DNA of 64,000 nt. Source: Squalus acanthias. Lineage: Eukaryota. Both the position numbers and the translations under genes were made by a program. Where the stretch lies: contig CM059431.1 of assembly GCA_030390025.1 (NCBI GenBank), forward strand, positions 106,456,001 through 106,520,000, written 5' to 3'. Positions 8,134 through 64,000 of the stretch are shown in pieces. Each line of letters starts with the position of its first letter. Within the stretch, counting starts at the first letter, position 1. Below the pieces are notes generated by a model. That model worked only from the letters and a program-made list of their open reading frames with translations. It had not been told where the DNA came from and made no database searches.

Positions 8134-8666
8134 TAAAGAGTTCTGACTCACTTCTATGCGCTAATGAGGGGCCTAACGCCAGTTTTAGGAGACTTCTGAG
8201 ACATTGAGGCTGCCTTGAGAGGAGCAGGCCTGCAAATTCATGTGGAGCCAGGAGGAGCCGCAGTGCCCCTCCCAGCTCTAGATCAATCCTGACGGCTACA
8301 ATTGCCAACCCCGCTACCCTCCCTATTCCATTATCCTCCCTCTCCCTCAGCAAGATGAAAAACATACAATAGATTAGACTAAGGATGATCTTCCTGTAGT
8401 GTATTGGTACAATATGCTAAATAAGACTACTGACAACATCGATACACACTTCCAGAGCAATTATGGCATACAAGTCCCACACTTACTGCGTTGCCAAACA
8501 TTTAGGTATTTCATTATGAAATGTATTTTCATTTGACGGCAATGGTGATAAAGTACTGCATTGTAGTATTAATGAGGTAGCTGGTGTACAGTTAAGTCTT
8601 AAAAATGAATAATTACTTTGCCAATATTATGCTGGGATCAGGATTATCCATGGCTAAGAATTTTTA

Positions 8667-8864
8667 TGATGCGGAGATGCCAGTGTTGGACTGGGGTGGA
8701 CAAAAGTGTGAAGTCGCACAACACCAGGTTATAGTCCAACAGCTTTATTTGAAATCACAAGCCTTCGGAGCGCTGCTCCTTCACCTGACGAAGGAGCAGC
8801 GCTCCGAAAGCTTGTGATTTCAAATAAAGCTGTTGGACTATAACCTGGTGTGCGACTTCTCACT
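8667..8864. mobile_element. Short palindromic Penelope-like element derivative
   Basis: Inverted arms around ~8783; 12-bp TSD TAAGAATTTTTA (8655-8666, 8865-8876); same terminal sequence as the PLE end at 29650-29747. Confidence 0.85.
8781..8817 (+). ncRNA. Minimal type I hammerhead ribozyme
   Basis: tcac CTGACGA A GGAGC agc GCTCC GAA AGCT T gtga: core, stem II, palindromic stem III, 4-bp stem I. Confidence 0.7.
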
Positions 8865-9310
8865 TAAGAATTTTTAGAAACTGCAATCAAAAATAGGCAA
8901 TTTGCAGTTTGTTGTAATAAATCCCAGTTCATGCAGCAACTCAATCTAAACAAGGATATCAAAAAGCACAACAAAACTATTGAGTTCACACAAAAATCAG
9001 ATACACAATGATCAGCCCTGAAGTCTCCAGCTCTCTGCAAGCAAATTTGAGGAATTGACTACAGTGTTTTTAATAATTTGATTTGAACAGCCTCTGGGTT
9101 ACTAGTCCAGTATCATAAGCACCAAGCTGCCATATTCTATTTACCACATGGGAGTATTAAAAATTAGATAATTGGGTACAATGTTAGTTTTGAACAGAAG
9201 GGGAGTGGGATTAATTGGAAAGCTCGAGCAAATAGCCGGCACAGGCACGATGGGCCAAATGGCCTCCCTCCGTGCTGTATCATTCTATGATTCTATGATT
9301 TTTAGTGTGT

Positions 9311-14232: not shown

Positions 14233-14795
14233 TCAGTAGTATAAAGCGCTGGAGCTGGCCACAGCTGGAGTATTTTGTCCAGTTCTGGTCACCACACTTT
14301 AGGAAGGATGTGAAGGCCCTTGAGAGGGTGCAGAGGAGGTTTATCAGAATGGTTCTGGGGATGGGGGATCTCAGCTACAAAGACAGGTTGGAGAAGCTGG
14401 ATTTGTTTTCATTAGCGCAAAGGAGGTTGAGGGCTGATTTGATAGAGGTGTACAAGATTAGGCTAGGCTAGACGGGGAAAGGCTGTTCCCACTAGTTGAT
14501 GGTACAAGGACTAGGAGACACAGATATAAGGTTTTGGGCAAGAGATACAGGGGGGATGAGAGGAAATACTGTTTTACGCAGCGAGTGGTGAGGACCTGGA
14601 ACTCGCTGCCGATGGAAGTGGTGGAAGTGGAGACACTCAATGTTTTCAAGGGGAGACTGGATAGGCACTTGAGGGAAATAAACTTGCAGGGCTACGGGGA
14701 TAGAGCGGGGGAATGGGACTGACTGGATTGCTCTACAGAGAGCCGGCACGGACTCAATGGGCCGAATGGCCTCCTTCTGTGCCGTTATGACTCTA
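14233..14795 (+). mobile_element. CR1 LINE 3' fragment
   Basis: LEY..QFWSPH..KDV.ALERVQRRF, FTQRVVRTWNSLP, 3' stem gggccgaatggcctcc. Confidence 0.9.
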
Positions 14796-16284: not shown

Positions 16285-16392
16285 CTATAGATTTCTGCAG
16301 GCAATTGCCAGTGCTGTATTTTGCCCTTGTTTGTGCTGGGGAATTGTGAATTTGAATGAGGTACTGATAGACCAGTAAAAGCTCTCGGTTAC
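16285..16392 (-). CDS. PCDH9: In-frame intron read-through tail ([35 protein letters not shown]), candidate short PCDH9 isoform
   Basis: ORF continues 35 codons past the donor to TAG; resembles the recalled mammalian short-isoform tail VNEHFYWSIST. Confidence 0.6.
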
Positions 16393-19300
16393 CTGTCTGG
16401 TGTGCAATGGACCCTTTGTCTTGAAGCCTCCTTGGGAGCTACACTCTGAGGCACTGAAGTGGTCTGAACTAGTGGAAGAACGCTTGGACAGGGTGTCGCA
16501 ACCCCCAACGAAGGTGTTGTCCAAAGGGAGCTCCTGAATCACGTGATGCTTTTTCGCTGAAATGGGAGTGTCTGGCTTTAGATGAAAAGAGGGCTGTGGC
16601 GAGCCAGATTTGTAATGCCGTGCTAGGTCTGGGCTGTTGGGCTTAAAGGTAGTTGGTGGTGTGGTGCCCCAGTCAAACCGTCCTATAGTCTGCTCCTCCA
16701 GCTCAGCTGGAAGGGTAATGGTCCCATTGATAGGCTCGTGGGCAGGATCATCAGGTTTGGATTCCTCGATGGTAACAAAGTTTAGAAGAGAACTCTTTGG
16801 AGACTTTCTTTTCTTCCTTTTCTTCTTTTTGTTCTGCTTGCTCTCCTGATTTGGAGACATCCACTCAGCGCCCTGCTTGTTCCTTTGTGTGGCTTTGAAC
16901 CTCGACGATTGCCGGCACCGCACCAGTACAGTAACAAAGATGACCACAATCACCACCATAGCCCCCGCCACTATGGCAATCATTATAGTAAGGTAGTCCT
17001 CATTTTGCCAGGGCTGGGTGCTATCTCCAATGTTCTTATCTAGGGGAGTCTCCATAGTCCTTCGTATTAGCTCGTAAATGTAACTAGCATTGCTTACGGT
17101 GTCATTTACATACAAGTAGACAAGTACAAGCGTGTGCAAGGGTTTAGGGTAACCTAAATCACTGATGTTTACCACCAAACGATGCAAGCCCTGGTCGGCA
17201 ACAGTTGGTTTCTCCTCCAAAGTAATATTACCCGTCACAGGATCAATTCTAAACAAGCCCTTATTATTTCCGCTGACAATGGTGTACTTGAGTTCTGCAT
17301 TCATCCCTGTGTCAACATCCACTGCAAACACTTCTGCCACCACAGAACCAGGGATAGCAGAAAGAGATACTAGTTTGAATGAAGAGTTTGAGGGCGGGTA
17401 GATTACAACAGGACTGTTATCATTGACATCTATGACATTGATGGTGACTTTGGCAATGGAGGTGCGGGCCGGTCTCCCCCTGTCTACCGCTTTGACTTCA
17501 AAGGTGTAGGAACTTTGCAGCTCTCTGTCGAATGAAACATTGGACCTTATAACTCCACTCAGCGGGTCCAAAATAAAATTATCGTTGTCGCCAACAACAG
17601 AGGCCATCACCTCCGCGTTCTCCCCAGCATCGGTGTCGGTCACTGTAATCACTCCCACTGTGCTGTACTTTGGTAAATTCTCAGAGACAAAAAACTGGAA
17701 GTGATTGTGGGTAAATTTGGGATTATTGTCATTCTCGTCCAGCACTGTGACAATCACGGCCGCTTGACTCTGAAGGGGAGGATTCCCACTGTCCCTGGCA
17801 GTCACGGTGAAAATGTAGCGCTCTTGCTCCTCCCTGTCAAACACCCTTGAAGCAGTCAAGACCCCGGTCTTGCGGTCCAGGTCGAAAAACGAAGCATTAG
17901 GCCCAAGCTGGTAAACGATCTCGGCGTTCTTGCCGCTGTCATCGTCGGTGGCGCTAATGGTGGTCAAGTACAGACCGCGGTGGTTGTTTTCAGGGACTGA
18001 CAGTTCAATGACAGGCTGACTAAACACTGGCGGGTTGTCATTCTCATCTTCCAGCTTAACTTTCACCAGGGCACTTTGATTCAGACTGGGCTTGCCTGAG
18101 TCAGAGGCAACAATCCTGAAGCTGTATTCTTTTGTGCTCTCATAGTCCAAGAAGGCAGAGGTCTCCAGCAGGTACTGGTTGTCATACACGGCCTTCAGGT
18201 GAAAAGGCACTTCTTTCTCAATGTAACAGACCACTTTCCCATTCACGTCAGTGTCCTTATCTGAGACCGTGATGAGCGCGATCTTGGTATTGACGGGGTC
18301 TTTCTCGGACAGGTAGACGGTGCCATTGATGGGGCTGATGATGTAGCGAATGTCAATGGTCGGCGGGTTGTCGTTGACATCGGTCACGTTGATAATGACG
18401 GTGGCCCTGGCCGGAGTGGAGCTGCCATCCGTGGCCAGCACGGTCATCTTGTGGATGGCCGTCTCCTCGCGGTCCAGGGGCCGCTGGACGGTGATGAGAC
18501 CCACGGTGCTGTTGAGGGCGAAATGCCGGCGGACGGCGGGGGAGACCTGGGGGCTGAAGAGGTAGCGGATCTCGGCGTTGGCCCCCACGTCGGCGTCGGT
18601 GGCGTGCAGCTGGATGACCGAGGTGGCCACGGGGGCATCTTCGGGCAGGTGGACCTCCAACTGGGTCTCTTTGAAGACCGGCTTGTTGTCATTCACGTCG
18701 CTCACCGTCACCTGCAGGATGGCGGTGCTGGACTTCTGCGGGCTGCCTCCGTCCTGGACCTTGATCTTCATGACATAGGTGTCCTTCTGCTCGCGGTCCA
18801 GGTCCTGCTGGACAATCAGCTGCGGCCACTTCTCGCCCTCGGGCGTCTCCACGATGTCCAAGCCGAAGATGCTCTGGCCGTTGAGCAGCTGGTAGTGCTG
18901 CACCCCGTTGGAGCCGGTGTCCGGGTCGGTGGCCGACGGGACGGGGAAGCGGCTGTTGACCAAGGTGTTCTCCGGGATGGAGATGTTGATGACCGGCGAG
19001 GGGAACATGGGCGCGTTGTCGTTGACGTCCCGCACGAAGATCTTGACCTTGACCAGCCTGAAGTGGTCGTTGGGCAGGATGACCACCTCGATCTCGAAGA
19101 AGCACTCGCTGTCGCTGTAGGTGCCGGCGCACAGCTTCTCCCGGTCCACCCGGCTGGAGGTGCTGAAGATCTCGCCGCTGCCGCTGGACACTCGCAGCAG
19201 CGGGATCTCGCCAGCCTTGGACACCAGCCTGTAGATCAGGTTGGCACCGCTGCCGGCGGCTGCATTGAGGTGGGAGATGTTCAGATCCCTGGGGATGTTC

Positions 19301-19422
19301 CCGATCAGGATATTCTCAGGCAGTTCCTCCTGGATGGTGTACACCAGCTCCTGGGCGAGGGCAGAGTCCCCCGTCAGACAAGCGATCAGGGCGAAAAACA
19401 GGTACAAATCCCGCAGATCCAT
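16393..19422 (-). CDS. PCDH9: Protocadherin-9 (delta-1 protocadherin), large first coding exon (1010 codons); downstream cytoplasmic exons lie outside the window
   Basis: [15 protein letters not shown] signal peptide; repeated cadherin Ca-binding motifs (DRE, DxD, DVNDNxP/DENDNxP); [27 protein letters not shown]; tail [45 protein letters not shown] characteristic of PCDH9; phase-0 donor CAG|GTAACC at 16392. Confidence 0.97.
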
Positions 19423-19612
19423 AATTCCACGGCTTGTCTCAGACGGACGCAGGGGTCACTTTCAGTTTTATTCGCACGTTGCAGACTTTGTTTCTCCCCT
19501 TCTAATTGTGCACGGATCGCCGGTCCGCTCGGTATCTATCCTCTGATGCAAGCAGCCATCGGTGCGGCGAAGAAGTTTGAATCTTTTTTTTTCTCCAGGC
19601 TTACGAAGATTT

Positions 19613-23949: not shown

Positions 23950-25033
23950 GTAGGGGGGTAGGGAAAAAGCAGGTAATTACAGACCTGTAAGCCTTACATC
24001 AGTTGTGGGCAAAATGCTGGAGTCCATCATTAAGGATGAAATAGCGGAGCACTTAGCAAATGGGGACAGGATAGGACAGAGTCAACATGGATTTACAAAG
24101 GGTAAATCGTGCTTGACTAATCTATTGGAATTTTTTGAGGGAGTAACTGGTAAAATAGATGGGGGAGAGCCAGTAGATGTGGTGTACCTGGACTTCCAAA
24201 AGGCCTTCGATAAGGTCCCACATAAAAGATTAGCAGGGAAAATTGAAGCTCATGGGATAAAGGGGAAAGTATTGACGTGGATAGAGAACTGGCTGTCAGA
24301 TAGAAAACAGAGAGTTGGAATAAACGGCTCATTTTCTGAATGGCAGGCAGTAACAAGTGGGGTACCACAGGGATCTGTCCTGGGTCCCCAGCTGTTCACA
24401 ATTTACATTAATGACCTGGATCAGGGAGTCGGATGCAGCATTTCCAAATTTGCAGACGACACTAAACTAGGAGGGGGGGTGGGCTCAGAGGAGGAGACCA
24501 GGAAGCTCCAGAGCGATTTGGACAGACTGGGTGATTGGGCGGATAAATGGCAGATGCACTATAATGTGGACAAGTGCGAAGTTATCCACCTTGGGTGCAG
24601 GAACGGGAGGGCAAATTATTATTTAAATGGCAATAAATTGGGAGAGGGGGAAGTACAGAGAGACCTGGGTGTTCTTGTACACCAGTCACTGAAGGCGAGC
24701 ATGCAGGTGCAACAGGCGATCAAGAAGGCAAACGGTATGCTGGCCTTCATAGCAAAAGGGTTGGAATACAGGAACAGGGATACCTTGCTGCAGCTGTACA
24801 GGGCACTGGTGAGACCACACCTCGAGTACTGTGTACAGTTTTGGTCGCCTCATCTGAGGAAAGATGTTCTTGCCATGGAGGGGGTGCAGCGGCGATTCAC
24901 CAGGCTGATACCAGGAATGGCGGGATTGACCTATGAGGAGAGACTATGTAGTTTAGGGATGTACACACTGGAGTTTAGAAGATTGAGAGGGGACCTCATA
25001 GAAGTGTATAAAATTCTGACAGGTCTAGATAGA
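23950..25033 (+). mobile_element. CR1 LINE ORF2 internal fragment with an uninterrupted reverse-transcriptase domain
   Basis: NYRPVSLTSVVGK, QHGF..KSCLTNL, YLDFQKAFDKVPH, GVPQGSVLGP, FADD, RPHLEYCVQFWSP; no 3' UTR. Confidence 0.95.
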
Positions 25034-25084
25034 ATTAATTTTGAACATGTGATGATTTATTCTTATCTAAGTATTGTGAATTTT

Positions 25085-25253
25085 TTTTATTTGTTTATGG
25101 GATGTGGGCGTGGCTGACAAGGCCAGCATTTATTGCCCATCCCTAATTGCCCTTGAGAAGGTGGTGGTGAGCCGCCTTCTTGAACCACTGCAGTCTGTGC
25201 GGTGAAGGTACTCCCACAGTGCTGTTAGGTAGGAAGTTCCAGAATTTTGACCC
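25085..25253 (-). mobile_element. LINE family C 3' tail
   Basis: WNFLPNSTVG..FKKAAHHHLLKGN* followed by gggatgggcaataaatgctggcc; same as the 28243 and 59393 copies. Confidence 0.85.
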
Positions 25254-28959: not shown

Positions 28960-29747
28960 CCTTACCCAGCTGTCAGGAGAACAGCGACCACAACACCACA
29001 CAACCCTGCCACGGCAACCTCTGCAAGACATGCCAGATCATCAACACAGATACCATCATCACACGTGAGGACACTACCCACCAGGTACATGGTACATACT
29101 CATGTGACTCGGCCAACGTTGTCTACCTCATACGTTGCAGGAAAGAATGCACTGCAGCATGGTACATCGGCGAGACCATGCAGACACTGAGACAATGTAT
29201 GAATGGACACCGCGCAACAATCGCCAGGCAGGATTGTTACCTCCCAGTCGGGGAACACTTCAGCAGTCAAGGACATTCAGCCTCGGATCTGCGGGTTAGC
29301 GTTCTCCAAGGCGGCCTTCGAGACACACGACAACGCAAAATCATCGAGCAGAAACTGATAGCCAAGTTCCGCACCCATGAGGACGGCCTCAATAGGGATC
29401 TCGGGTTTATGTCACGCTACAGAACGTGACTCGACATCGTTGTCTGTCTTTCCAGTTTTTAAAAAAAAACACCAAAAAAAAAAGTTAAAAGCTTAACTGC
29501 AGACGGCAGCATTTGACACGTTGGACCCCCTGTGACCCACCTCATTGTCTTAGCTGTACTCTGATGTGTCTTTGATGTAATGCCTCCCTAACAGATTGTA
29601 TCTCTGCAGACAAATTGTTCTCTGTGTATATATACTGTGTAATAGATTCCCTCACTGTACCTTTACCTGAAGAAGGAGCGGAGCTCCGAAAGCTCGTAAT
29701 TTTAAATAAAACTGTTGGAATATAACCTGGTGTTGTGCGACTTCTCA
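28960..29747 (+). mobile_element. 5'-truncated Penelope-like retroelement: GIY-YIG endonuclease C-terminus, 3' UTR and terminal repeat
   Basis: PC...CKTC..YSCDSANVVYLIRC..WYIGET.QTLRQ.MNGHR..PVGEHF..H..EQKLI.KF.T...GLNRD, a typical PLE GIY-YIG domain; stop at 29429. Confidence 0.9.
29663..29699 (+). ncRNA. Minimal hammerhead ribozyme in the PLE terminal repeat
   Basis: ttac CTGAAGA A GGAGC gga GCTCC GAA AGCT C gtaa. Confidence 0.75.
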
Positions 29748-30489
29748 TTATCATCCTTCTCAGCCATTGTCTCAGGCTGAACCAGACTGATCTAAGCATC
29801 CTGCTCAACCCCAATCTGAACCTATGACCTGATATTCTCTCCATTAAAAAGAACGCCTCTTCCACCTCCGTAACATCACCCATTTGCCCCCCTTGATTCA
29901 GCCCATCTGTCTCAAAACCCTCATTCATGCCTTTGCCACCTCCAGACTCAACTATCCCATTGCTCTCTAGACCGACCTCTCATCCTTAACCCTCCATAAA
30001 CCTCAGCTCATCCAAAACTCTGCTGCCTGTATTCTATCCTGCACCATGTTCCACTCACCTATCACCCTTGTACTTGCTGACCTACATTGGCTCCTAGATC
30101 CCTAATGCCTCCAATTTTAAATTCTCATCCTCATGCTTAAATCCCTTCTTGGCCTTGCCACTTCCTTCAGCTGTACAACCCCCACCCCCCTGAACTCTCA
30201 GTTCAACTCACACCCCCCCTGGCCCCTCCACCTTTGCCAGACCATTGGTTGCCATGCTGTCTGGACCCAATTCTCTGGAATTCCCTCCTTAAACACTTTC
30301 ACTTATCAATCTCCATCTCCTCTTTAAGACCCTCTTTAAAACCCAGCTCTTTGACCAAGGCTTTGGTCACCCCTCCTAATATCTCCTTCTTTGGCTCGAT
30401 GTCCATTGTTGTCTGAGGGCACGTTGGGAATTTTTTCGAAGTTAAAAGCACTATATAAATGCAAGTTGTTGTTGTCGTCATCATTATCA

Positions 30490-41132: not shown

Positions 41133-42457
41133 GACATTTCCAACCAACAGTAGAGGCTCAGATTGCAAACTTGTCATGCAGCCAAGCCAAGACATGATCA
41201 TGCATCAAACTGCTCTACAGCATAGTGCGTTACTGCTCCAATGTGCTACACCACTGGACTGCCTTGTGCCCGATTTCCTTTTGCACTTTTCATCCTTTTC
41301 CACGTTACTATTATAGTCTGTGCAATGCATGACATAACAAAACAATGAAATCATTCAAACATTATAGGCCTTCTTTAAAGTTGCAAACCCCATCAGCTTA
41401 TGAAGTGCAATATTCACGATTATTAATGAAACTGGAAAATACTGTTATTTTACATTGACTTACAATGCGAATGTTACATCTAAAGCCAACTACATTGATT
41501 GGACTCAGTGCAGAATAGACATTTCCTCCAGTGTCAAATTAAGCTGAGCCAATTTAGCAATCCTTAGATGTTAATAGCTGCAAAACAAATTGAATAAATT
41601 CACAATTTGTTCGGGATTATGTTATTATGGTATGCACTGTTGAATTTTATATTAATAGAATTGCCATTTGTGGAAAATGCAGTTTTATTAATATTGACTG
41701 TAATCCTTCTAAATCCTGAGAGACTTTTTTAAAATTTTAATTAATCAAAGAAGGTCATCATGTATTTTTTCCACGTGAAATTCAATCTAAACAATGGGCC
41801 TTTTGATTTGGATAAGAAACAAGTAGAAATGAATTCAAATTAAAGGTGAATGAAGTGAATTAGAATGTAAAATATATTCTTTTTATTTGTTAATTTCCCT
41901 GCAACTTAATTCCAGAATCAATTTGGGTCAAGTCAGCATGGATGCTTCTAACACATTTATTTTACAGTACTACCCAGGCATAAGACTTGGGATCAGCCCT
42001 GAAATAGGCTACAATGCAACTCTCTGTTTGTTTTGCCAATATTAACATCTAAGGATTGCTAAATTGGCTCAACTTAATTTGACACTCTATTCTGCACTGA
42101 GTTCAATTAATGTAGTTGGCTTTAGATGCAACATTCGCATTGCAAGTCAATGTAAAATAACAGTATTTTCTGGTTTCATTAATAATCAGGAACATTGCAC
42201 TTCATAAGCTGATGGGGTTTGCAACTTTAAAGAAGGCCTATAATGTTTGAATGATTTAATCGCTTTGTTATGTCATGCATTGCACAGACTATAATAGTAA
42301 CGTGGAAAAGGATGAAAAGTGCAAAAGGAAATCCAGTGGTGTAGCACATTGGAGCAGTAACGCACTATGCTATAGAGCAGTTTGATGCATGATCATGTCT
42401 TGGCTTGGCTGCATGACAAGTTTGCAATCTGAGCCTCTACTGTTGGTTGGAAGTGTC
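41133..42457. repeat. Long inverted repeat: arms ~41133-41589 and ~42027-42457, spacer ~440 bp
   Basis: Arms align base by base in reverse complement with few substitutions and short indels. Confidence 0.95.
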
Positions 42458-45954: not shown

Positions 45955-46400
45955 TTCAGCTATGTGGGGAGATTAGAGAACCTGGATTGTTCTCCTTAGA
46001 GAAGGTTAAGAGGATATTTAGTCGAGGTGTTTAAAACTCTGAGGGGTTTTGATAGAGTAGATTGGGAGAAACTGTTTCCACTGGCAGGAGGGTCAATAAC
46101 CAGAGGACACAGATTTAAGATAATTGGCAAAAAAAAGCCACGGGGGAGATAAAGTGAATTTTATTTTTTACTCAGCGAGTTGTTATGATTTGGAATGCTT
46201 TGCCTGAAAGGGTGGTGCAAGTGGCTTCAATAGTATCTTTCAAAAGGGGTTTGGATCTCTACTTAAAAAGGGAACATTTTGCAGGGCTATGGGGAAAGGG
46301 CGGGGGAGTGGGACTATCTGATGTGCTCTTGCAGAGAGCCGGCACGGGCTCGATGGGCCGAATGGCTGCCTTCCGTGCTGTAACCATTCTATGATTCTAT
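45955..46400 (+). mobile_element. CR1 LINE 3' fragment
   Basis: FTQRVV.IWNALPE; tail (ATTCTATG)n. Confidence 0.9.
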
Positions 46401-52480: not shown

Positions 52481-53361
52481 AACGTGGTCTTAGTTTTGTA
52501 ATGAATAGTTTGCTTTGGCTGCAATCTCCTGATAGTGAGTTTGAAATTTGAAGAAGTGATCAAAAATCATTCCCAAATCTTCTCCCTTTGTTGCTGTAGC
52601 TGACACACACTCAAGCCTCTATTTGTGTACTTGTGTGCTTAACTGCGCACTTATGTACACTGAAGGACATTTGCCAGTCATGGGCCCACTTCCTCAGCCT
52701 ATCCAAATCCACTATTTGACGGTTCTGGATTACTAGCTCTGCCACACAATTGGGGGTCACCCACAAATTTATTGTGCTACATATAATCTCCTCCAGATCA
52801 TCACTGAACATAATGAACAAAGGGGACCCAGCACTGAAGGTTGGGTCACCCCACTCATGCATGGACCCTACTTGGAGGCATCTCCATTTTAAAACAGCCC
52901 TTTCCTTTTGATCTGCCAGTCAATTTCTAATCCAACTTGCTATTTTCTGCCCACGCCACAAGATCGAATTTTCTCACACAATCACTCAGGTGCCACTTCA
53001 TCAAAAACCTTTTAAAAGTTCAAGGAGATGATGTCTTCCAGATCTCCTTGAATCACTGCTCTAATCATATCTCTTAAAAAAAGACTCAATCAGGTTTGTC
53101 AAATATGACCTTTTCTTTCTGAAGTTATGTTGGGTATCCTCCATAACCTCTGTACATTCTAAATGATAATTTATAGCATCTCTGATGATACTTTGTATTA
53201 CTTTCCCACCACAGAGTCTATAGTCAACGGGATTTGCTTTTAATCCCTTTTTGAATAAAGGGACCATATCCACTTTCCTCCAATCAACTGGCACTACCCC
53301 AGTTCTCAGTGAGCTACTGAAAATATCCACCAGGTCATCACACAAGAATTGTACACTACAC

Positions 53362-53492
53362 ATTGTTCTCTGTCTATATATGCTTTGCTGATTTGTATTC
53401 CTTCACTTTACCTGACGAAGGAGCAGCGCTCCGAAAGCTCGTGATTTCAAATAAAACTGTTGAACTATAACCTGGTGTTGTGCGACTTCTCA
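53362..53492 (+). mobile_element. Solo PLE terminal-repeat fragment with a hammerhead at 53408-53444
   Basis: ttac CTGACGA A GGAGC agc GCTCC GAA AGCT C gtga; near-identical to 63644-63747. Confidence 0.85.
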
Positions 53493-54796
53493 TATTTTAA
53501 GGACCCTGAGATAAATTAAGTATGGCCCTGCTGCTTTTACTATCTTAAGCTCTTTTAATTTAGTTAGCACCATTTCCTTTGTGATCTGCAAGAAACCCAT
53601 CTGGATTTTAATTCTACCACTAGGTGAGGAGATCTATCCTTTCGAGTAAAAACAAATACAAATTATCTGTTCAACAATTCTCCCAAGCCTTTTTTCATTA
53701 TATATAATACTTACAGAGTCATCCAACAATAGTCATATTTGATCCCTAACTGATCTTTCACTCCAAACACAAGCATAAAATGCTCCCCATTATCCTATTT
53801 TCCACTCACTTCCTATCCATATATATTTTAGCTTTCCTTAGTTAGCACTAACTGCTTCTTCTATCTGTATCTATTACTCTATTTATACATCCTTAAAAAA
53901 ATAGCTTCTTAAATGCCAATCACTGAATTCGCTCCCCATTTAACCACTGTGAGCCTATTTCATCATATACTCTTTTCCTTTTTGACAGGATAGATAGGGC
54001 TTCTTTTCCTTTTAGCACTTTATCAAAAGTATCCCATTTTATCTGGAGGGATGCATTTATTTTGCTCCAGCTCTTTCTTCCGCTTTACCATTATTACCAA
54101 GTCTCTTTTTTAATTGCGGAGCTTTTTTTCACTGAGCTTCTTTTGAAAATTCAACAGCACCATAGTGTCATCTCTGAACTTGCTGCAGCCCCATAGTTCA
54201 CCAGAGAGGTCTAAGTTCATAAGGTGCTTCACATCTAGGGGTCATATAGCCTGCTGTGGCTCATTACTAGAACACTAAATCCAATAATATTATCTGTTCT
54301 ACTTGTTCCAGCATATTGAGTTAAGAAGTAATCATTGATCATATCAGTACATGCCTACAGGGGGCCTCCCATCTCCTGTGTCTGCCCTTGTTTGTCCACT
54401 TTGTAAGTGAGTAATTGAAATCTCCCATCACTATTACCTTCCCTTCATTAACTACCTAATTGATATGATCACAGAGTTGCAGCTCTTCATTTCTCTCTTG
54501 GTTTGGTGGTCCGTAATACAGACTCATTATCACTCTGGTACGTCTCTTGAACTCTATTTGGAGCCAGACTATTTCTCAGCATGTATTTGTCCCTACAAGT
54601 TGCAAGACTTGTTTTATATGACTGACAACAAGATTGAATATTTATGAAGTAGGCCAGGTCCTGCTGTGTGTATAAATATATATATGTATATATCTCAACC
54701 CCTTTTCCGCTCCTGTATGTTGAATGGAAAACTATTGCAGAAGCAGTTAAGCCTATTTGCATTTTTTTTGTATAGCAGATCAAAAACTATCTATCA

Positions 54797-56186: not shown

Positions 56187-57200
56187 TTAACACAGTAGCA
56201 AAATACTGCGGATGCTGGAAATCTGAGGAGAGAGAAACAGATTTAACGTCAGTTCTGCTGAAGGGTCACAGACCTGAAACGTTGGGCTGGATTTTGTCAA
56301 TGGGGACGTGATGGAGGCGGGACTCCCACTTTTTGGGTTGTAGTCCCGCCTCCATCGAGTTGTGGCCAACCCACTGTATTTTCCCTTGATTGACCTTGTT
56401 AAGCCCGCCCAGCGGGCTTAGCAGGCCAATCAAGGGTCCCTTGGATACAGGTGATGTCAGCCATTGAAATTTCATCTGTTTTCAGCTTTTGACAGATGAA
56501 ATTTCAGCGTTTGACAGCTCTGTGAAGCTGTCAAACACTGACAATATGATTTCTAACGTGAGTCCCTGTACTTAGACTCAGTTAGAAATCAATCCAGCAC
56601 AGAAAGCAGAGACTGCAGCTTTTGACAGCTCCGCGGCCATTCTGCTTTCTGTGCCGTGGATGTGAAGGACTCCCGACACCTTAAGGAAGCTAGCCTGCAG
56701 GACAAAGTTAAGGTAAGTAAAAGTTCTTAAAACACTTTACACACACCAAACACACTTATCTCTGCATTCATGCACCCATCACTCACCTGCACACCGGACA
56801 TCTTGGCCCCTCCAAGCCCTCCAGACCGATGGTCCGCCTTGCTAAATCGGTGTGGTTCGGACCTGTCGGGAAGCCCACACTTCAGGGCTAAAAATAGGGA
56901 TTAGCCAATAAACTGCCTGTTAACTACCTGTTAACAGGCAGTTTATTGGCACTAATCCCCTTCCCGCCTCGGGGAGGTGGGTCCCAGCACAGGTCGGGCA
57001 CCCGCCTCCTGGGAAACTGGCATAGAGGCGGGTTGGGGGCGGGATGGGTTGGGACCCCCGAATCTGCTATTTTCCCACCCCACAGGCCTCCAAACCCGCC
57101 TCCACGGGCCGGTGAAAATTGAGCCCGTTGACTCAGTTTCTCTCTCCACGGATGCTGCCTGACCTGCTGAGTGTTTCCAGCATTTTCTGTTGTTATTTAA
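56187..57200 (+). mobile_element. Second-family PLE derivative whose degenerate hammerhead is split by a MITE
   Basis: agtt CTGCTGA A GGGTC aca GACCT GAAACGTT [MITE] gact..ctctctccacggatgctgcctgacctgctgag..tccagcattttctg. Confidence 0.7.
56284..57126. mobile_element. Harbinger-like MITE family F, copy 1
   Basis: TIRs GGGCTGGATTTT / AAAATTGAGCCC; 3-bp TSD GTT; repeated GGAGGCGGG subterminal motifs. Confidence 0.85.
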
Positions 57201-58304: not shown

Positions 58305-59138
58305 GGGCGTGATCTTGCCAGCCCTGGGGAGGCGGGTTTGGAGGTGGGACTGCCGGGAAAATGGCAGAATTTGGGGGCGGGTGCCCAACCCGCCTCCATG
58401 CCATCTTGCCAGGAGGCGGGTAGCTGTCACACGCCGGGTCCCATCTCCTTAGAGGGGGGAAGGGATTACAGCCACTTAACTGCCTGTTAACAGGGAGTTA
58501 ACAGGCAGAAAATAGGATTATCACCATTTTGCCCTCACAAGTACAGGCTTCCCGAAGGCTCCGAACCCCGCCAGGGTCACCGAGGCGAGTAGTGGGTCTG
58601 CGGGGGTCGGAGGGGTCCAAAAGTGCGCTGTGAAGGTAAGTGATGGGTGCAAGTGTGGAGAGGTGAGTATCTGAGGTAAGTACAAAGTGTTAGAAAAAGT
58701 TTACTTACCTTTGTTTCTTCCTGTAGGCTTCAGTCGGTGGGTATGTGGAGAGTCTCGCACCTCCGCGGTAGAGATGACAGATGGCCGTTGCATTCTCCAA
58801 TGCAACAATCATCTCATTTCTGCAAAAGAAAGAGGTTTGATGAGGTCTTGAATTCAAGAACTCATCAAACTACAGAGAATGTCAGTGTTTGACAGCTTCA
58901 CAGAGCTGTCAAATGATGACAATTCATCTGTCAAAAATTTTTGACAGATGAAACATCATACGTTGACATTCTCTGCAACCAGCTTTCCCTTAATTGGCCT
59001 GCTAAGCCTGCTGGGTGGGCTTAACAAGGTCAATCAAGGGAAATAGCGTGGGTTGGCCAGAAGTTGATGGAGGCGGGACTAAAACCCGACAAGTGGGAGT
59101 CCCGCCTCCAAAAGATCCCCATTGGCAAAATCCAGCCC
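58305..59138. mobile_element. Harbinger-like MITE family F, copy 2 (inverted relative to copy 1)
   Basis: Ends GGGCGTGATCTTGCC / GGCAAAATCCAGCCC; 58880-59138 matches 56284-56545 in reverse. Confidence 0.8.
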
Positions 59139-59249: not shown

Positions 59250-61366
59250 TTACACAAATAGATAGGAAAGTTTTTAATTAAGGAGAAGTGTGAAGTGATG
59301 CAATTTGGGAGGACTACTATGGAAAGACAGTGTACTATAAATAGCACGATTTTGAAAAGTGCAGATGAGCAGAGAGACCTTGGTGTCCATATTTTTTTTT
59401 TTATTCGTTTTTATGGGATCTGGGCGTCGCTGGCAAAGCCAGCATTTATTGCCATCCCTAATTGCCCTTGAGAAGGTGATGGTGAGCTGCCTTCTTGAAC
59501 CGCTGCTGTCCGTGTGGTGAAGGTACTCCCACAGTGCTGTTAGGTAGGGAGTTCCAGGACCCAGCGACGATGAAGGAACGGCGATATACTTCTAAGTCAG
59601 GATGATGTGTCACTTGGAGGTGGTGGTGTTTCCATGCATCTGCTCCCCTTGTCCTTCTAGGTGGAAGAGGTTGCGGGTTTGGGAGGTGCTGCCGAAGAAG
59701 CCTTGGCGAGTTGCTGCAGTGCATCTTGTAGATGGTACACACTGCAGCCACGGTACGCCGGTGGTGGAGGGAGTGGATGTTTAAGGTGGTACCAATCAAG
59801 CGGGCTGCTTTGTCCTGATGGTGTCAAGCTTCTTGAGTGTTGTTGGAGCTGCACTCATCCAGGCAAGTGGAGAGTATTCCATCACACTCCTTACTTGTGC
59901 CTTGTAGATGGTAGAAAGGCTTTGGGGAGTCAGGAGGTGAGACACTCACCGCAGAATACCTAGCCTCTGACCTGCTCTTGTTGCCACCGTATTTATGTGG
60001 CTGCTCCAGTTAAGTTTCTGGACAATGGTGACCCCCCAGGATGTTGATGATGGGAGATTCGGTGATGGTAATGACATTGAATGTCAAGTGGTGGTGTTTA
60101 GACCCTCGCTTGTTGGAGATAGTCATTGCCTGGCACTTCTGTGGTGCGAATGTTACCTGCCACTTATCAGCCCAAGCTTGAACGTCATCCAGGTCTTGTT
60201 GCATGTGGGCATGGACTGCTTCATTATTTGAGGAGTTGTGAATGGCGCTGAACACTGTGCAGTCATCAGCGAACATCCCCATTTCTGACCTTATGTTGGA
60301 GGGAAGGTCATTGATGAAGCAGCTGAAGATGGTTGGGCCTAGGACACTGCCCTGAGGAACTCCTGCAGTGATGTCCTAGGGCTGTGATGATTGACCTTCA
60401 AACACCACAACCATCTTCCTTTGTGCTAGGTATGACTCCAGCCAGTGGAGAGTTTTCCCCCCCGATTCCCATTGACTTCAGTTTTACTAGGGCTCCTTCA
60501 TGCCACACTCAGTCAAATTCTGCCTTGATGTCAAGGGCAGTCACTCTCCCCTCACCTCTGGAATTCAGCTCCTTTGTCTATGTTTGGACCAAGGCTGTAA
60601 TGAGGTCGGCAGCCGAGCGGACAAAAAGCGGGATTGTGGGACTAAGCACGACTGCTCTTTCAATGAGCCATATACACAAATCCTTAAAGGTGGCATGGCA
60701 AGTTGGTAAGGTGGTTAAAAGAGCATATGGGTTGCTTGGGTTTATAAATAGAGGAATAGAATATAAAAGCAAAGAGATCATGCTGGAACTTTATAAATCA
60801 CTGGTTAGGCCTCAGCTGGAGTGTTGTGAACAGTTCTGGACACCACACTTTTGTAATGATGTAAAGGCCTTAGAAAGGGTGCAGAGGAGGTTTACCAGGA
60901 TGTGACCAGGGACGATGGACTTCAGTTATGAGGAGAGGTTGGAAAAGTTAGGACTGTTCTCCTTGGAACAGAGAAGGTTAAGAGGTGACCTAATGGAGGT
61001 TTTCAAGGTGATGCGAGGTTTTGATAGAGTAGAGAGAGAAAAACTATTCGCTCTGGCGAGTGGGTCAATAACCAGAGGTCATAGATTCAAAATCATTGGC
61101 AAAAGATCTAGAGGGGAGATGAGAATTTTTTTCACTCAGAGAGTTGTTGGGATCTGGAACGCTCGACCTGAAAAGCTGGTGGACGCTGATTCCATCAATA
61201 ATTTTAAATGGGAGTTGGACGGGTAGTTGAGGAGGAGGAGCTCACAGGGTTACGGACAAACAGCGGAGGGTGTGGGACTGAACACGACGGCTCTTTCAAA
61301 GAGCCAGCACAGGCACGATGGGCCGAATGGCCTCCTTCTGTGCTGTAAGTTTCTATGATTCTATGA
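59250..61366 (+). mobile_element. Younger CR1 3' fragment (59250-59392 and 60668-61366) interrupted by LINE C
   Basis: KCEVMQFG..QRDLGVH|IHKSLKVA..LYKSLVRPQLE..ERVQRRFTRM..; tail ttctatgattctatg; CCATAT duplicated at the junctions. Confidence 0.9.
59393..60616 (-). mobile_element. LINE family C, 5'-truncated, with RT domain
   Basis: GVPQGSVLGP, MFADD, W.DKWQVTFAPQKC, ends KKAAHHHLLKGN* with an A-rich tail. Confidence 0.9.
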
Positions 61367-61967
61367 TGCTTTGAAGGAGTCTGGGTTAAGATAAGAAGTA
61401 ATAAATGATCTATTGCCATATTGGGAGTACGTTATGGACCACTGAATAGTGGGAAACAAATTGAGGATGTGATCTGCAGGCAATTTAGATTGTTACATTG
61501 GTAGCAAGAGTTGTAATAATGGGAACTTCAGCAATCCTAACATAGGATAAGACAAACATTTATGGTCAAATTGGGGCAGGATTCCAAGAACACATGCATT
61601 ACTCTATCCTTAGTCATCATGCTGCACAACCAACAAGCAAGGACGCAGTACTTGAACTGGTTTTGGGTACTGAAATAGGACAAGTAAGTGACCTGAAGTT
61701 AGGAGAACACTTGGGAAATAGTGACCAAAGCCTAATTAAGTTCCTACTGAAAATAGATAAAGAGAAAGAGGAGTTGAAGATGAAGCTGTTGAACTAGAAA
61801 TTACCCTATTTTCGGGAGGTGAAACGAGACCTAGCTCAGATTAATTAGTTGGAACAAATGTCAGATCAAACAGCAAACCAGATTAAGTACATAGGAGTAA
61901 AGGGGTGCATCAAAGCTTGGCATTTCATGGATATATATATTTCCAAAAATGCATCATCGCTCTGGCA

Positions 61968-62325
61968 TAATCATAGAATCATAGAAAGATACAGCACAGG
62001 AGGAGGCCATTCGGCCCGTCGTGCCTGTGCTGGCTCTTTGAAAGAGCAGTCGTGCTGAGTCCCACATCCCCCGCTTTTTGTCCGTAACCCTGTCAGTTCC
62101 TCATCCTCCAGAACCTGTCCAACTCCCATTTAAAATTATTGATGGAATCAGCTTCCACCACCTTTTCAGGTGGAGTGTTCCAGATCCCCACAACTCTCTG
62201 AGTGAAAACATTCCTCCTCATCTCCCCTCTAGATCTTTTGCCAATGATTGTGAATCTATGGCCTCTGGTTATTGACCCACTCACCAGAGGGAATAGTTTT
62301 TCTCTCTCTACTCTATCAAAACCTC
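61968..62325 (-). mobile_element. CR1 3' fragment, same subfamily as 61015-61366, inverted
   Basis: Aligns in reverse complement to 61015-61366. Confidence 0.9.
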
Positions 62326-63593
62326 CACGCTGACTTTGGCAGGAGTCTGTCAGAATGGCTGGAAAATAGACCAGGATCCAAATGCACCTGGTCCCAACCT
62401 TGCACCGAAGAATCCGGCTGACATTTTGGGGGTGGAGCCTCCACTGGCCCCCAAAAAGGCGACTGTCATAAAGGAACACGGCAGTGGGTGGGGACTCCCT
62501 GCGCCAGAGTTCAAGAACCTTGGGGCCTCAAAGGGCTATCGTGTGTGATTAGCAGAGGTACAACTAGTTATACTAGGCATACCTGACTGACAGAGGCGGA
62601 AGAGGAGAACACCTACGGTTTTAGGTCAGGATCAAGGCACGAAGCTTCGAAGAGGAGTGACATTATTTTAAAACATTTATCAATGCACCACCACCCCCCT
62701 TTCCAAGGCCTCAGTTTCTCTGCCAGACTTATTGAAAGTCTGCTTCTTAATGTTAGTTCCTGTAGTAAGTTTCCTCCTCCATTTGACATTGCCTTGTGTA
62801 AGTCTTTACTCATCCACACTGAGCAGTCAAGTGCACGCTTCACAGTGCATATGACACCTAATAAACATCAGTCACGATAGCAGTCGGTCTATTTTTCTTT
62901 GGATATTTGTAAATAAAAAGCTTGAACCTGCTGTGCAACAACTCCAGCCAGGTATGTGCTTGCTGCCACCTGACACATTAATTAACACAAAAATAAGTGT
63001 CAGCCATGCATCATTTTTGTGTATTAGTAGCTGTTGTTTATTATGTTAATAGTCTTGGTCAGCCACACAGCCACCTAACACTTAGCCTGATGATCTAGGA
63101 TGCACTGTGAGGGAACTGAGTTTATTTATGTGTTAAGTGGGTAGAGTATATAAATCTTAATATTTATGGATATTACTTGTTCCAAGCCTGCATTGCTATA
63201 TGAATTTTATCTATTCTGTAATCAATATATATCATAAGACTATGAAACATTGATGTTCTTCACAATCCAAGTTGCCCATATATCCATTTCCTTTCATATG
63301 AGATCAAGAGAAATGTACATGATTACATACCTGAAGCTGACATATATTGAATACATTAGTTTTACAGGATGTGTTCAAAAATGTCAAGAGATAATTCTGA
63401 ATAATTGTACAGTTGTAGTCGTGGTTAGTGACCCATGATGCCTTTTCTTGGGAAGGGCAGTTAAATATGTGTGTATCTGGAGCTTTGGTGATTGGTAATT
63501 ATTCTTGATGCGGAGATGCCGGTGTTGGACTGGGGTGGACAAAAATGAGAAGTCGCACAACACCAGGTTATAGTCCAACAGTTTTATTTGAAA

Positions 63594-63630
63594 TTACGAG
63601 CTTTCGGAGCGCTGCTCCTTCGTCAGGTAA
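63594..63630 (-). ncRNA. Minimal type I hammerhead ribozyme (mirror copy)
   Basis: Exact reverse complement of 63664-63700. Confidence 0.8.
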
Positions 63631-63663
63631 AGTGAGGGAATATCTGATTTGTATTCCCTCACT

Positions 63664-63700
63664 TTACCTGACGAAGGAGCAGCGCTCCGAAAGCTCGTAA
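63664..63700 (+). ncRNA. Minimal type I hammerhead ribozyme (predicted cut after C63696)
   Basis: ttac CTGACGA A GGAGC agc GCTCC GAA AGCT C gtaa. Confidence 0.8.
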
Positions 63701-63887
63701 TTTCAAATAAAACTGTTGGACTATAACCTGGTGTTGTGCGACTTCTCGTAATTATTCTAACATGGTTGTATACATCTACGGTCCGTGTCATTCTAACATT
63801 GTTTATCTCAGCATGAAGATCCAAATATAGGGCAATAAATGGCCTAAGTTGACAGTTAGTAAAGCCACCCATCAGGAAACCAAAGAG

Positions 63888-64000
63888 TGTCAGCTGTGGC
63901 TCAGTGGGCAGCACCCTTGCTCTCTCAGTCAGAATAGTTGTGGGTTCAAGTCCCACTCCACAGACTTGAGCACAAAAATCTAGGCTGACACTCCCCAGTG
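63888..64000 (+). mobile_element. DeuSINE 5' part (runs off the window)
   Basis: gtcagctgtggctcagtggg..gggttcaagtcccactcc.. Confidence 0.9.

Follow-up and report, generated by a model that had tools for sequence, protein, structure and literature searches.

The hairpin at 63506–63747 and its surroundings

The stretch of Squalus acanthias DNA analyzed here (64,000 nucleotides, henceforth the window) contains a palindromic hairpin at 63506–63747, in which the two arms, 63547–63642 and 63652–63747, are exact reverse complements of each other (96/96) and enclose a loop of 9 nt at 63643–63651. The hairpin is extended on its left side only, by 41 nt (63506–63546), and the resulting 242-bp unit is flanked by an 11-bp direct repeat at 63495–63505 and 63748–63758, the left copy being 82% A+T. 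Recomputation confirmed in every part the geometry given in a preliminary description of the locus, namely 96-nt perfect arms, a 9-nt loop, a 41-nt extension, and an 11-bp target-site duplication (TSD).

In terms of the Penelope-like element (PLE) family described below, the left extension is the known PLE tail, that is, the 3′ extension of one pseudo-LTR (pLTR) on the minus strand, and its outer end is family-wide. Continuous with this tail is a 5′-truncated pLTR in element sense (63547–63642, minus strand), followed by a putative junction base between two truncated copies (63643) and by an inverted, tail-less, 5′-truncated pLTR of 104 nt on the plus strand (63644–63747), which is identical to 53388–53491 at 101 of 104 positions. 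By the same comparison, eight of the nine loop bases (63644–63651) are native pLTR of the right arm; the base at 63643 fits the continuation of neither arm when judged by the copy at 53358–53493, a reading that could shift with subfamily differences.

The surroundings hold several further features. A large protocadherin exon (16285–19455, minus strand), with six cadherin repeats and a Pfam Protocadherin domain, has the hairpin 44 kb on its 5′ side, and a tRNA-like SINE-type repeat family (D6) adjoins the hairpin at 63889–63984 and occurs at four other places in the window. Other inverted repeats comprise a duplication of about 450 bp (41133–41589 and 42027–42457, 90% alike and found nowhere else in the window); a pair at 61015–61367 and 61970–62325 (91% alike), the repeat of which presumably represents a LINE 3′ end and is also found at 45955–46400 and 14358–14785; and an old, long inverted repeat at 56284–57112 and 58318–59138 (72% over about 830 bp), within which lie small palindromes. 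A listed reading frame at 60372–60905 was discarded because stops interrupt its translation.

Empty sites and age of the insertion

Perfect palindromes are a known artefact of sequencing and assembly, a point in favor of explaining the hairpin as a fold-back artefact. Public contigs from 4 of the 24 runs listed, representing two samples of organism A, organism B, and organism C, were aligned over 63130–63880. In organism B (run X6), one contig covers 63133–63494 and continues directly with 63748–63878 (record positions 1201 to 1202); similarly, in organism C (run X7), 63494 is joined to 63748 (record positions 1199 to 1200). An empty site with a single TSD copy is thus present in both of the two related organisms examined, and comparison of the flanks with the window shows 10 (organism B) and 11 (organism C) differences in 493 bases. 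In both runs of organism A, a left-flank contig enters the tail and extends to 63526, so the left junction is no assembly artefact; contig cover in these runs stops short of the right flank beyond 63780 and has no bearing on the right junction, which to that extent leaves room for an artefact. Against this stand the TSD, the empty sites of the relatives, the left junction in two samples, the family-typical ends, and an older, diverged hairpin within the same window, and an artefactual origin is barely credible. The 242-bp palindrome is a real insertion, missing from two relatives. Moreover, the probability of 0 differences in 96 positions is 0.12–0.14 even at the full age of the split from organisms B and C; the perfection of the arms therefore needs no special cause, since youth alone predicts it.

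Parentage in a Penelope-like element family

Besides the hairpin at 63506–63747, three more copies of the family lie in the window. The first is a second, older fold-back copy with a tail (8667–8864), flanked by a 12-bp TSD (8655–8666 and 8865–8876), of which the arms differ by two mismatches and a 3-nt gap. Its tail of 38 nt has the same tail end as the younger hairpin, and its tail-less end lies 3 nt further; unlike in the younger hairpin, the inversion point is located near 8779–8782, where folding back removes the core of one ribozyme and leaves the tailed arm without the CUGANGA motif. The other two copies are tail-less pLTRs on the plus strand, for which no TSD was found on searching: one at 29610–29749, with a TATA-like box and a hammerhead motif, and a solo pLTR at 53358–53493 with a TATA-like box, an Inr-like TCACT motif, and a hammerhead motif. 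In the longer copies, the TATA-like box and the TCACT motif stand just upstream of stem I; the right-arm pLTR of the hairpin (63644–63747) begins downstream of the position of this box, and the hairpin arms are without it.

The pLTR at 29610–29749 stands at the 3′ end of a remnant of a PLE GIY-YIG endonuclease reading frame (28962–29429, plus strand; P0001), 180 nt downstream of it. Residues 52–205 of P0001 are 88% identical to a shark protein (P0002) that carries the Pfam domain RVT_1 and 63% identical to an 881-aa reverse transcriptase (RT)–endonuclease protein (21 of 101 candidates passed the threshold of E 1e-20), and GIY-YIG clusters are among its look-alikes in the Atlas (31% and 18% of members). 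These protein matches by themselves point to a cartilaginous fish as host. Pfam called no GIY-YIG domain in P0001 or in the endonuclease piece of L003 described below, and a single PDB match was discarded as chance. A linker finger (CX2-5CxxC) before a C-terminal GIY-YIG domain with a CCHH motif marks the Neptune or Nematis clades in the classification of PMC8557442; P0001 possesses both the finger, in the form CX4CxxC, and a GIY-YIG-like core with a CCHH-type motif, as expected for Neptune, this being a feature common to Nematis. Neither a full-length autonomous PLE copy nor the RT of this family was seen within the 64-kb window; an open RT fragment of 387 codons at 23954–25117 (plus strand; RVT_1, E 1e-31) is unlike these PLE proteins.

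Judged by sequence, the arms are pLTRs of a Neptune-type PLE. The joining of a pLTR to a GIY-YIG reading frame, expected of endonuclease-bearing PLEs, is found in the sibling at 29610–29749, the 63.5-kb copy having lost the reading frame; the further hallmarks, i.e., a one-sided tail (41 and 38 nt), an inverted 5′-truncated pLTR, and an AT-rich TSD (11 and 12 bp), are present in the hairpins themselves. One of the two origins initially proposed, a young and extremely truncated PLE insertion, is supported by the sibling pLTR joined to an endonuclease, the inverted tail-less pLTR, the tail, the AT-rich TSD, and the empty site.

Beyond the window, an exact 20-nt pattern matched 0 loci in viral contigs and 0 in metagenome contigs, and a degenerate hammerhead pattern matched 0 viral and 3 metagenome loci; all three of the latter related hammerheads sit on contigs with RT-like or endonuclease-like pieces. 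Among these loci, L001 combines a related pLTR hammerhead with an inverted RT piece, and L002 and L003 combine it with endonuclease ends; they are probably animal DNA, with L002 a possible chimera. In all three loci, the hammerhead is followed by a GYTGGAC motif, as in the predicted pLTR–tail stem treated below. In addition, the endonuclease piece of this PLE family lies inside annotated shark host proteins (P0006, P0010, P0011, P0012, and P0017), affecting isoforms of P450, septin 5a, NOXP20, XRCC5, and PPP1R12A, through either exonisation or annotation error.

Hammerhead motifs

Each arm carries a minimal type-I hammerhead motif, on the plus strand at 63664–63700 and on the minus strand at 63594–63630 (descriptor match at 63626). 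On the plus strand, stem I pairs 63664–63667 with 63697–63700, followed by CUGACGA (63668–63674), an extra A (63675), stem II (63676–63680 with 63684–63688), GAA (63689–63691), AGCU (63692–63695), and C17 (63696). Cleavage is predicted between 63696 and 63697 on the plus strand and between 63598 and 63597 on the minus strand; the cleavage point proposed earlier, with a 5′-OH at 63697, is the right one for the motif. Similarly, the earlier claim of an intact hammerhead on each strand holds insofar as the motif is complete in each arm, "intact" being applicable to the motif only. The features of minimal hammerheads were all found, namely the conserved core, the extra nucleotide at 9/10.1, G10.1–C11.1, a palindromic stem III stub, and stems I and II.

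A descriptor of minimal hammerheads yielded five matches in the window, all in this pLTR family, compared with a mean of 0.02 and a maximum of 1 in 200 dinucleotide shuffles. Rfam reported no hammerhead family at E ≤ 5 or E ≤ 10 and none at gathering score, as is expected since the motif is without helix III and loop 1. Across four runs (n = 34 variant rows), no variant at 1% or more falls on hammerhead core positions, and the variable positions are N7, loop II, H17, stem I, and two CpG sites in stem II; this conservation argues, at the sequence level, that the hammerhead matters to the parent element. Stem I changes on both sides at two of its four pairs, in six distinct sequences, and all 54 cells pair; the covariation score was reached by 17 of 500 shuffles in a set that is small and related, which lends the hammerhead modest support. 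Co-folding of two hammerhead cores gave another intermolecular structure rather than the AGCU dimer, nearest-neighbor folding being uninformative here.

Predicted folding of the transcripts

For a plus-strand transcript of the hairpin, the predicted fold is a rod with an energy of −195.6 kcal/mol (z = −33), whereas the hammerhead fold within the same hairpin reaches −125.5 kcal/mol, at a cost of about 70 kcal/mol. The pair probabilities of the hammerhead are about 0 in the full transcript of either strand and equally about 0 in a prefix that ends just past the motif; since the arms are arranged head-to-head, transcription in either direction reaches the antisense arm before the sense one, so that the ribozyme would be sequestered. 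The switch between rod and hammerhead suggested in the preliminary description thus has the predicted folding against it and is unlikely in this hairpin.

In contrast to the full hairpin, a free sense arm with its tail contains both hammerhead stems in its minimum-energy fold. In such a free sense RNA (minus strand), a 9-bp stem is predicted between the pLTR and the tail (63523–63580, with 63572–63580 of the pLTR pairing to 63523–63531 of the tail); its inner pairs have a probability of about 0.8 in both this copy and the copy at 8667, compared with about 0 for the complete hairpin. The two sides of this predicted stem flank the tail-less end, and the stem may have a role.

A rod of 96 perfectly paired base pairs at −195.6 kcal/mol could also be taken for a regulatory hairpin retained by the host, as a source of siRNA or miRNA, as an ADAR substrate, or as a ribozyme switch near the protocadherin gene, and siRNA and dsRNA from inverted Penelope copies have been described in Drosophila (PMC3681739). 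However, the hairpin is missing in relatives of which the flanks differ by only 10–11 of 493 bases, the perfection of its arms is expected from youth, and it is without a TATA-like box of its own. Matches to miRNA-type hairpins in Rfam were rejected, all of them being below gathering scores, and retention by the host is accordingly a very improbable account of the locus.

Junctions in public contigs

The preliminary description had proposed, as its second possible origin, a non-autonomous family of ribozyme hairpins. In this alternative, the PLE enzyme would copy a subset of the hairpins whole and in trans, by tail-primed reverse transcription across both arms, as is conceivable given that pLTRs alone can suffice for trans mobilization (PMC3846280) and that pLTR-derived non-autonomous retrozymes exist (10.64898/2026.07.22.740005). 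The outer ends are shared in any case: at the tail end, 63506, 134 contigs in X1 and 156 in X2 diverge from the reference into unrelated flanks, this end being common to both window hairpins and to those contigs, and among the matches listed, loose ends also pile up at the tail-less end, 63541–63548, which is common within 3 nt to hairpin and non-hairpin copies. The use of the same tail-less end by non-hairpin copies speaks against a hairpin family. The summed contig depth of the element is 30,000–200,000 times that of the flank, a figure to be read as "very abundant" only and not as a copy number.

Public contigs from four runs contain 210 joints, and 15 of these were examined. All 15 skip from the left to the right arm and, once mirror images are merged, represent 14 distinct junctions; the deepest of them accounts for 0.06–0.37% of arm depth and the 15 together for less than 0.7%. 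At the same time, some of these junctions recur at 36–173 times the flank (single-copy) depth, and one, 63624 to 63666, is present in all four runs. Ten of the 15 joints end at 63661 or 63666, and the junction positions are approximate because these ends are partly alignment edges arising from subfamily differences; in addition, a junction of high copy number may be broken up in De Bruijn contigs and so escape notice. The junction of 63624 with 63666 coincides with a short natural inverted repeat at the border of stem I and the core, so its recurrence is explicable by microhomology.

Fold-back points that differ between copies, as they do between the two window hairpins and among the contigs, largely answer to the sign by which the preliminary description itself would recognize independent insertions; they make separate truncated insertions more plausible than a hairpin family that propagates itself, and the minority of recurring junctions is what still speaks for the earlier proposal. 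Many junctions with none dominant among those examined, a recurrent junction that microhomology can make, the hairpin without a TATA-like box, and a rod predicted to abolish both the hammerhead and the pLTR–tail stem weigh against propagation as a unit, which is improbable on balance. Moreover, the single internal structure and symmetrical terminal inverted repeats of MITE-like elements were not found, the tail being asymmetric and the junctions variable, nor were the two or more head-to-tail units of non-LTR retrozymes, the arms being head-to-head with no tandem among the six arms in the window.

Proposed origin by target-primed insertion

The hairpin very probably consists of two head-to-head, 5′-truncated copies of the hammerhead pLTR of a Neptune-type PLE, likely inserted through a single target-primed event, and is predicted to have been inactive from the outset. 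An inverted 5′-truncated pLTR with a one-sided tail of 30–40 bp has been described for PLEs (PMC8557442 and PMC3846280), the tail being the stretch between two RT start sites, with both DNA strands cut and extended at AT-rich targets (PMC11167929). In the proposed course, the RT–endonuclease of the element would nick the two strands of an AT-rich target at positions 11 nt from each other. Of the two 3′ ends released, one would prime cDNA synthesis on the RNA at the start site that marks the end of the tail, and the other at the inner start site, some 40 nt upstream. Each cDNA would stop after about 100–140 nt and the ends of the two would be joined, such that the palindrome would be built at insertion rather than inherited as a unit. 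It is PMC11167929 together with the anatomy of the hairpin that points to two nicks, two cDNAs, an early stop, and end-joining. The hammerhead itself would serve the parent element, likely in 5′-end processing just behind the pLTR promoter; in the in vitro work of PMC11167929, the PLE hammerhead is protein-assisted and dispensable for insertion.

Alternatively, the second arm may have arisen within the same kind of event by fold-back self-priming of a single cDNA, following Arkhipova's self-priming idea, by which palindromes at inverted junctions are so read in PMC3846280. The perfect arms of the young copy and the subfamily-diagnostic bases shared by the arms of the copy at 8667 agree with such a course. 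However, the loop is an extension of the tail-less arm in both window hairpins (n = 2). Had the tail-less strand snapped back, the tail would be unaccounted for; had the tailed strand done so, the loop should hold bases in antisense. Two full copies are too few to tell a two-primer join from fold-back self-priming, and the ownership of the loop suits the two-primer join better than snap-back, again on n = 2 copies; self-priming is rated the less likely course. The step at issue is left open by both PMC11167929 and PMC8557442.

Relation to known elements and significance

The hairpin pattern has already been described for PLEs and is ordinary. Searches of the open-access literature listed no paper on this shark family, on PLE hairpins in sharks, or on a hairpin-type non-autonomous PLE family. 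The closest parallels are Pen2a_Av of Adineta vaga (PMC3846280) and the insertions in PMC8557442, which share the shorter inverted 5′ pLTR, the one-sided tail, and a TSD of about 10 bp; the accounts of tails in these two sources give 30–40 nt, as compared with 41 nt here and 38 nt in the copy at 8667. These parallels further share a pLTR with a TATA-like box and a TCACT Inr-like motif and a palindrome at the inverted junction, and the present locus differs from them in that severe truncation leaves a hairpin with no reading frame and the arms meet inside the pLTR. Similarly, Poseidon PAc of Anolis carolinensis (PMC11167929) has two RT start sites bounding the tail, an AT-rich target, and a pLTR hammerhead; PAc, however, belongs to the Poseidon clade and its reading frame starts inside the ribozyme, whereas the endonuclease here bears the linker finger shared by Neptune and Nematis, and the start codon likely lies downstream of the tail, to judge by the consensus of loose ends in organisms B and C (agreement 0.52).

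The ribozymes resemble the minimal hammerheads of PMC4209133 in their core, the extra base before stem II, G10.1–C11.1, the palindromic positions 15–16, and a stem I of 4 bp, and that source already reports dual minimal hammerheads on opposite strands about 100–700 bp apart; in contrast to those, stem II here has 5 bp and only 33 nt separate the stem I edges of the two motifs. Like non-LTR retrozymes, as presented in 10.64898/2026.07.22.740005, the hairpin is a short non-coding derivative of a pLTR with a type-I hammerhead; retrozymes are nevertheless head-to-tail tandems in which a dimer is possible, whereas in the shark hairpin the arms are head-to-head and each transcript holds a single sense ribozyme. 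That the few junctions at 100 times single-copy depth or more in three organisms mark hairpin mini-elements copied by Penelope enzymes, as a head-to-head counterpart of retrozymes, is improbable; if true, such mini-elements would also feed perfect dsRNA against their parent element.

The single locus is of little weight, being a young and probably inert transposon stump. Stumps of this kind could mislead the annotation of miRNAs and hairpins in sharks. As a class, however, they constitute a large natural record of PLE integration, each stump keeping both RT start sites, the stagger of the nicks, and the join within 250 bp; because these are kept, a genome-wide table of stumps could separate two-primer joining from self-priming.
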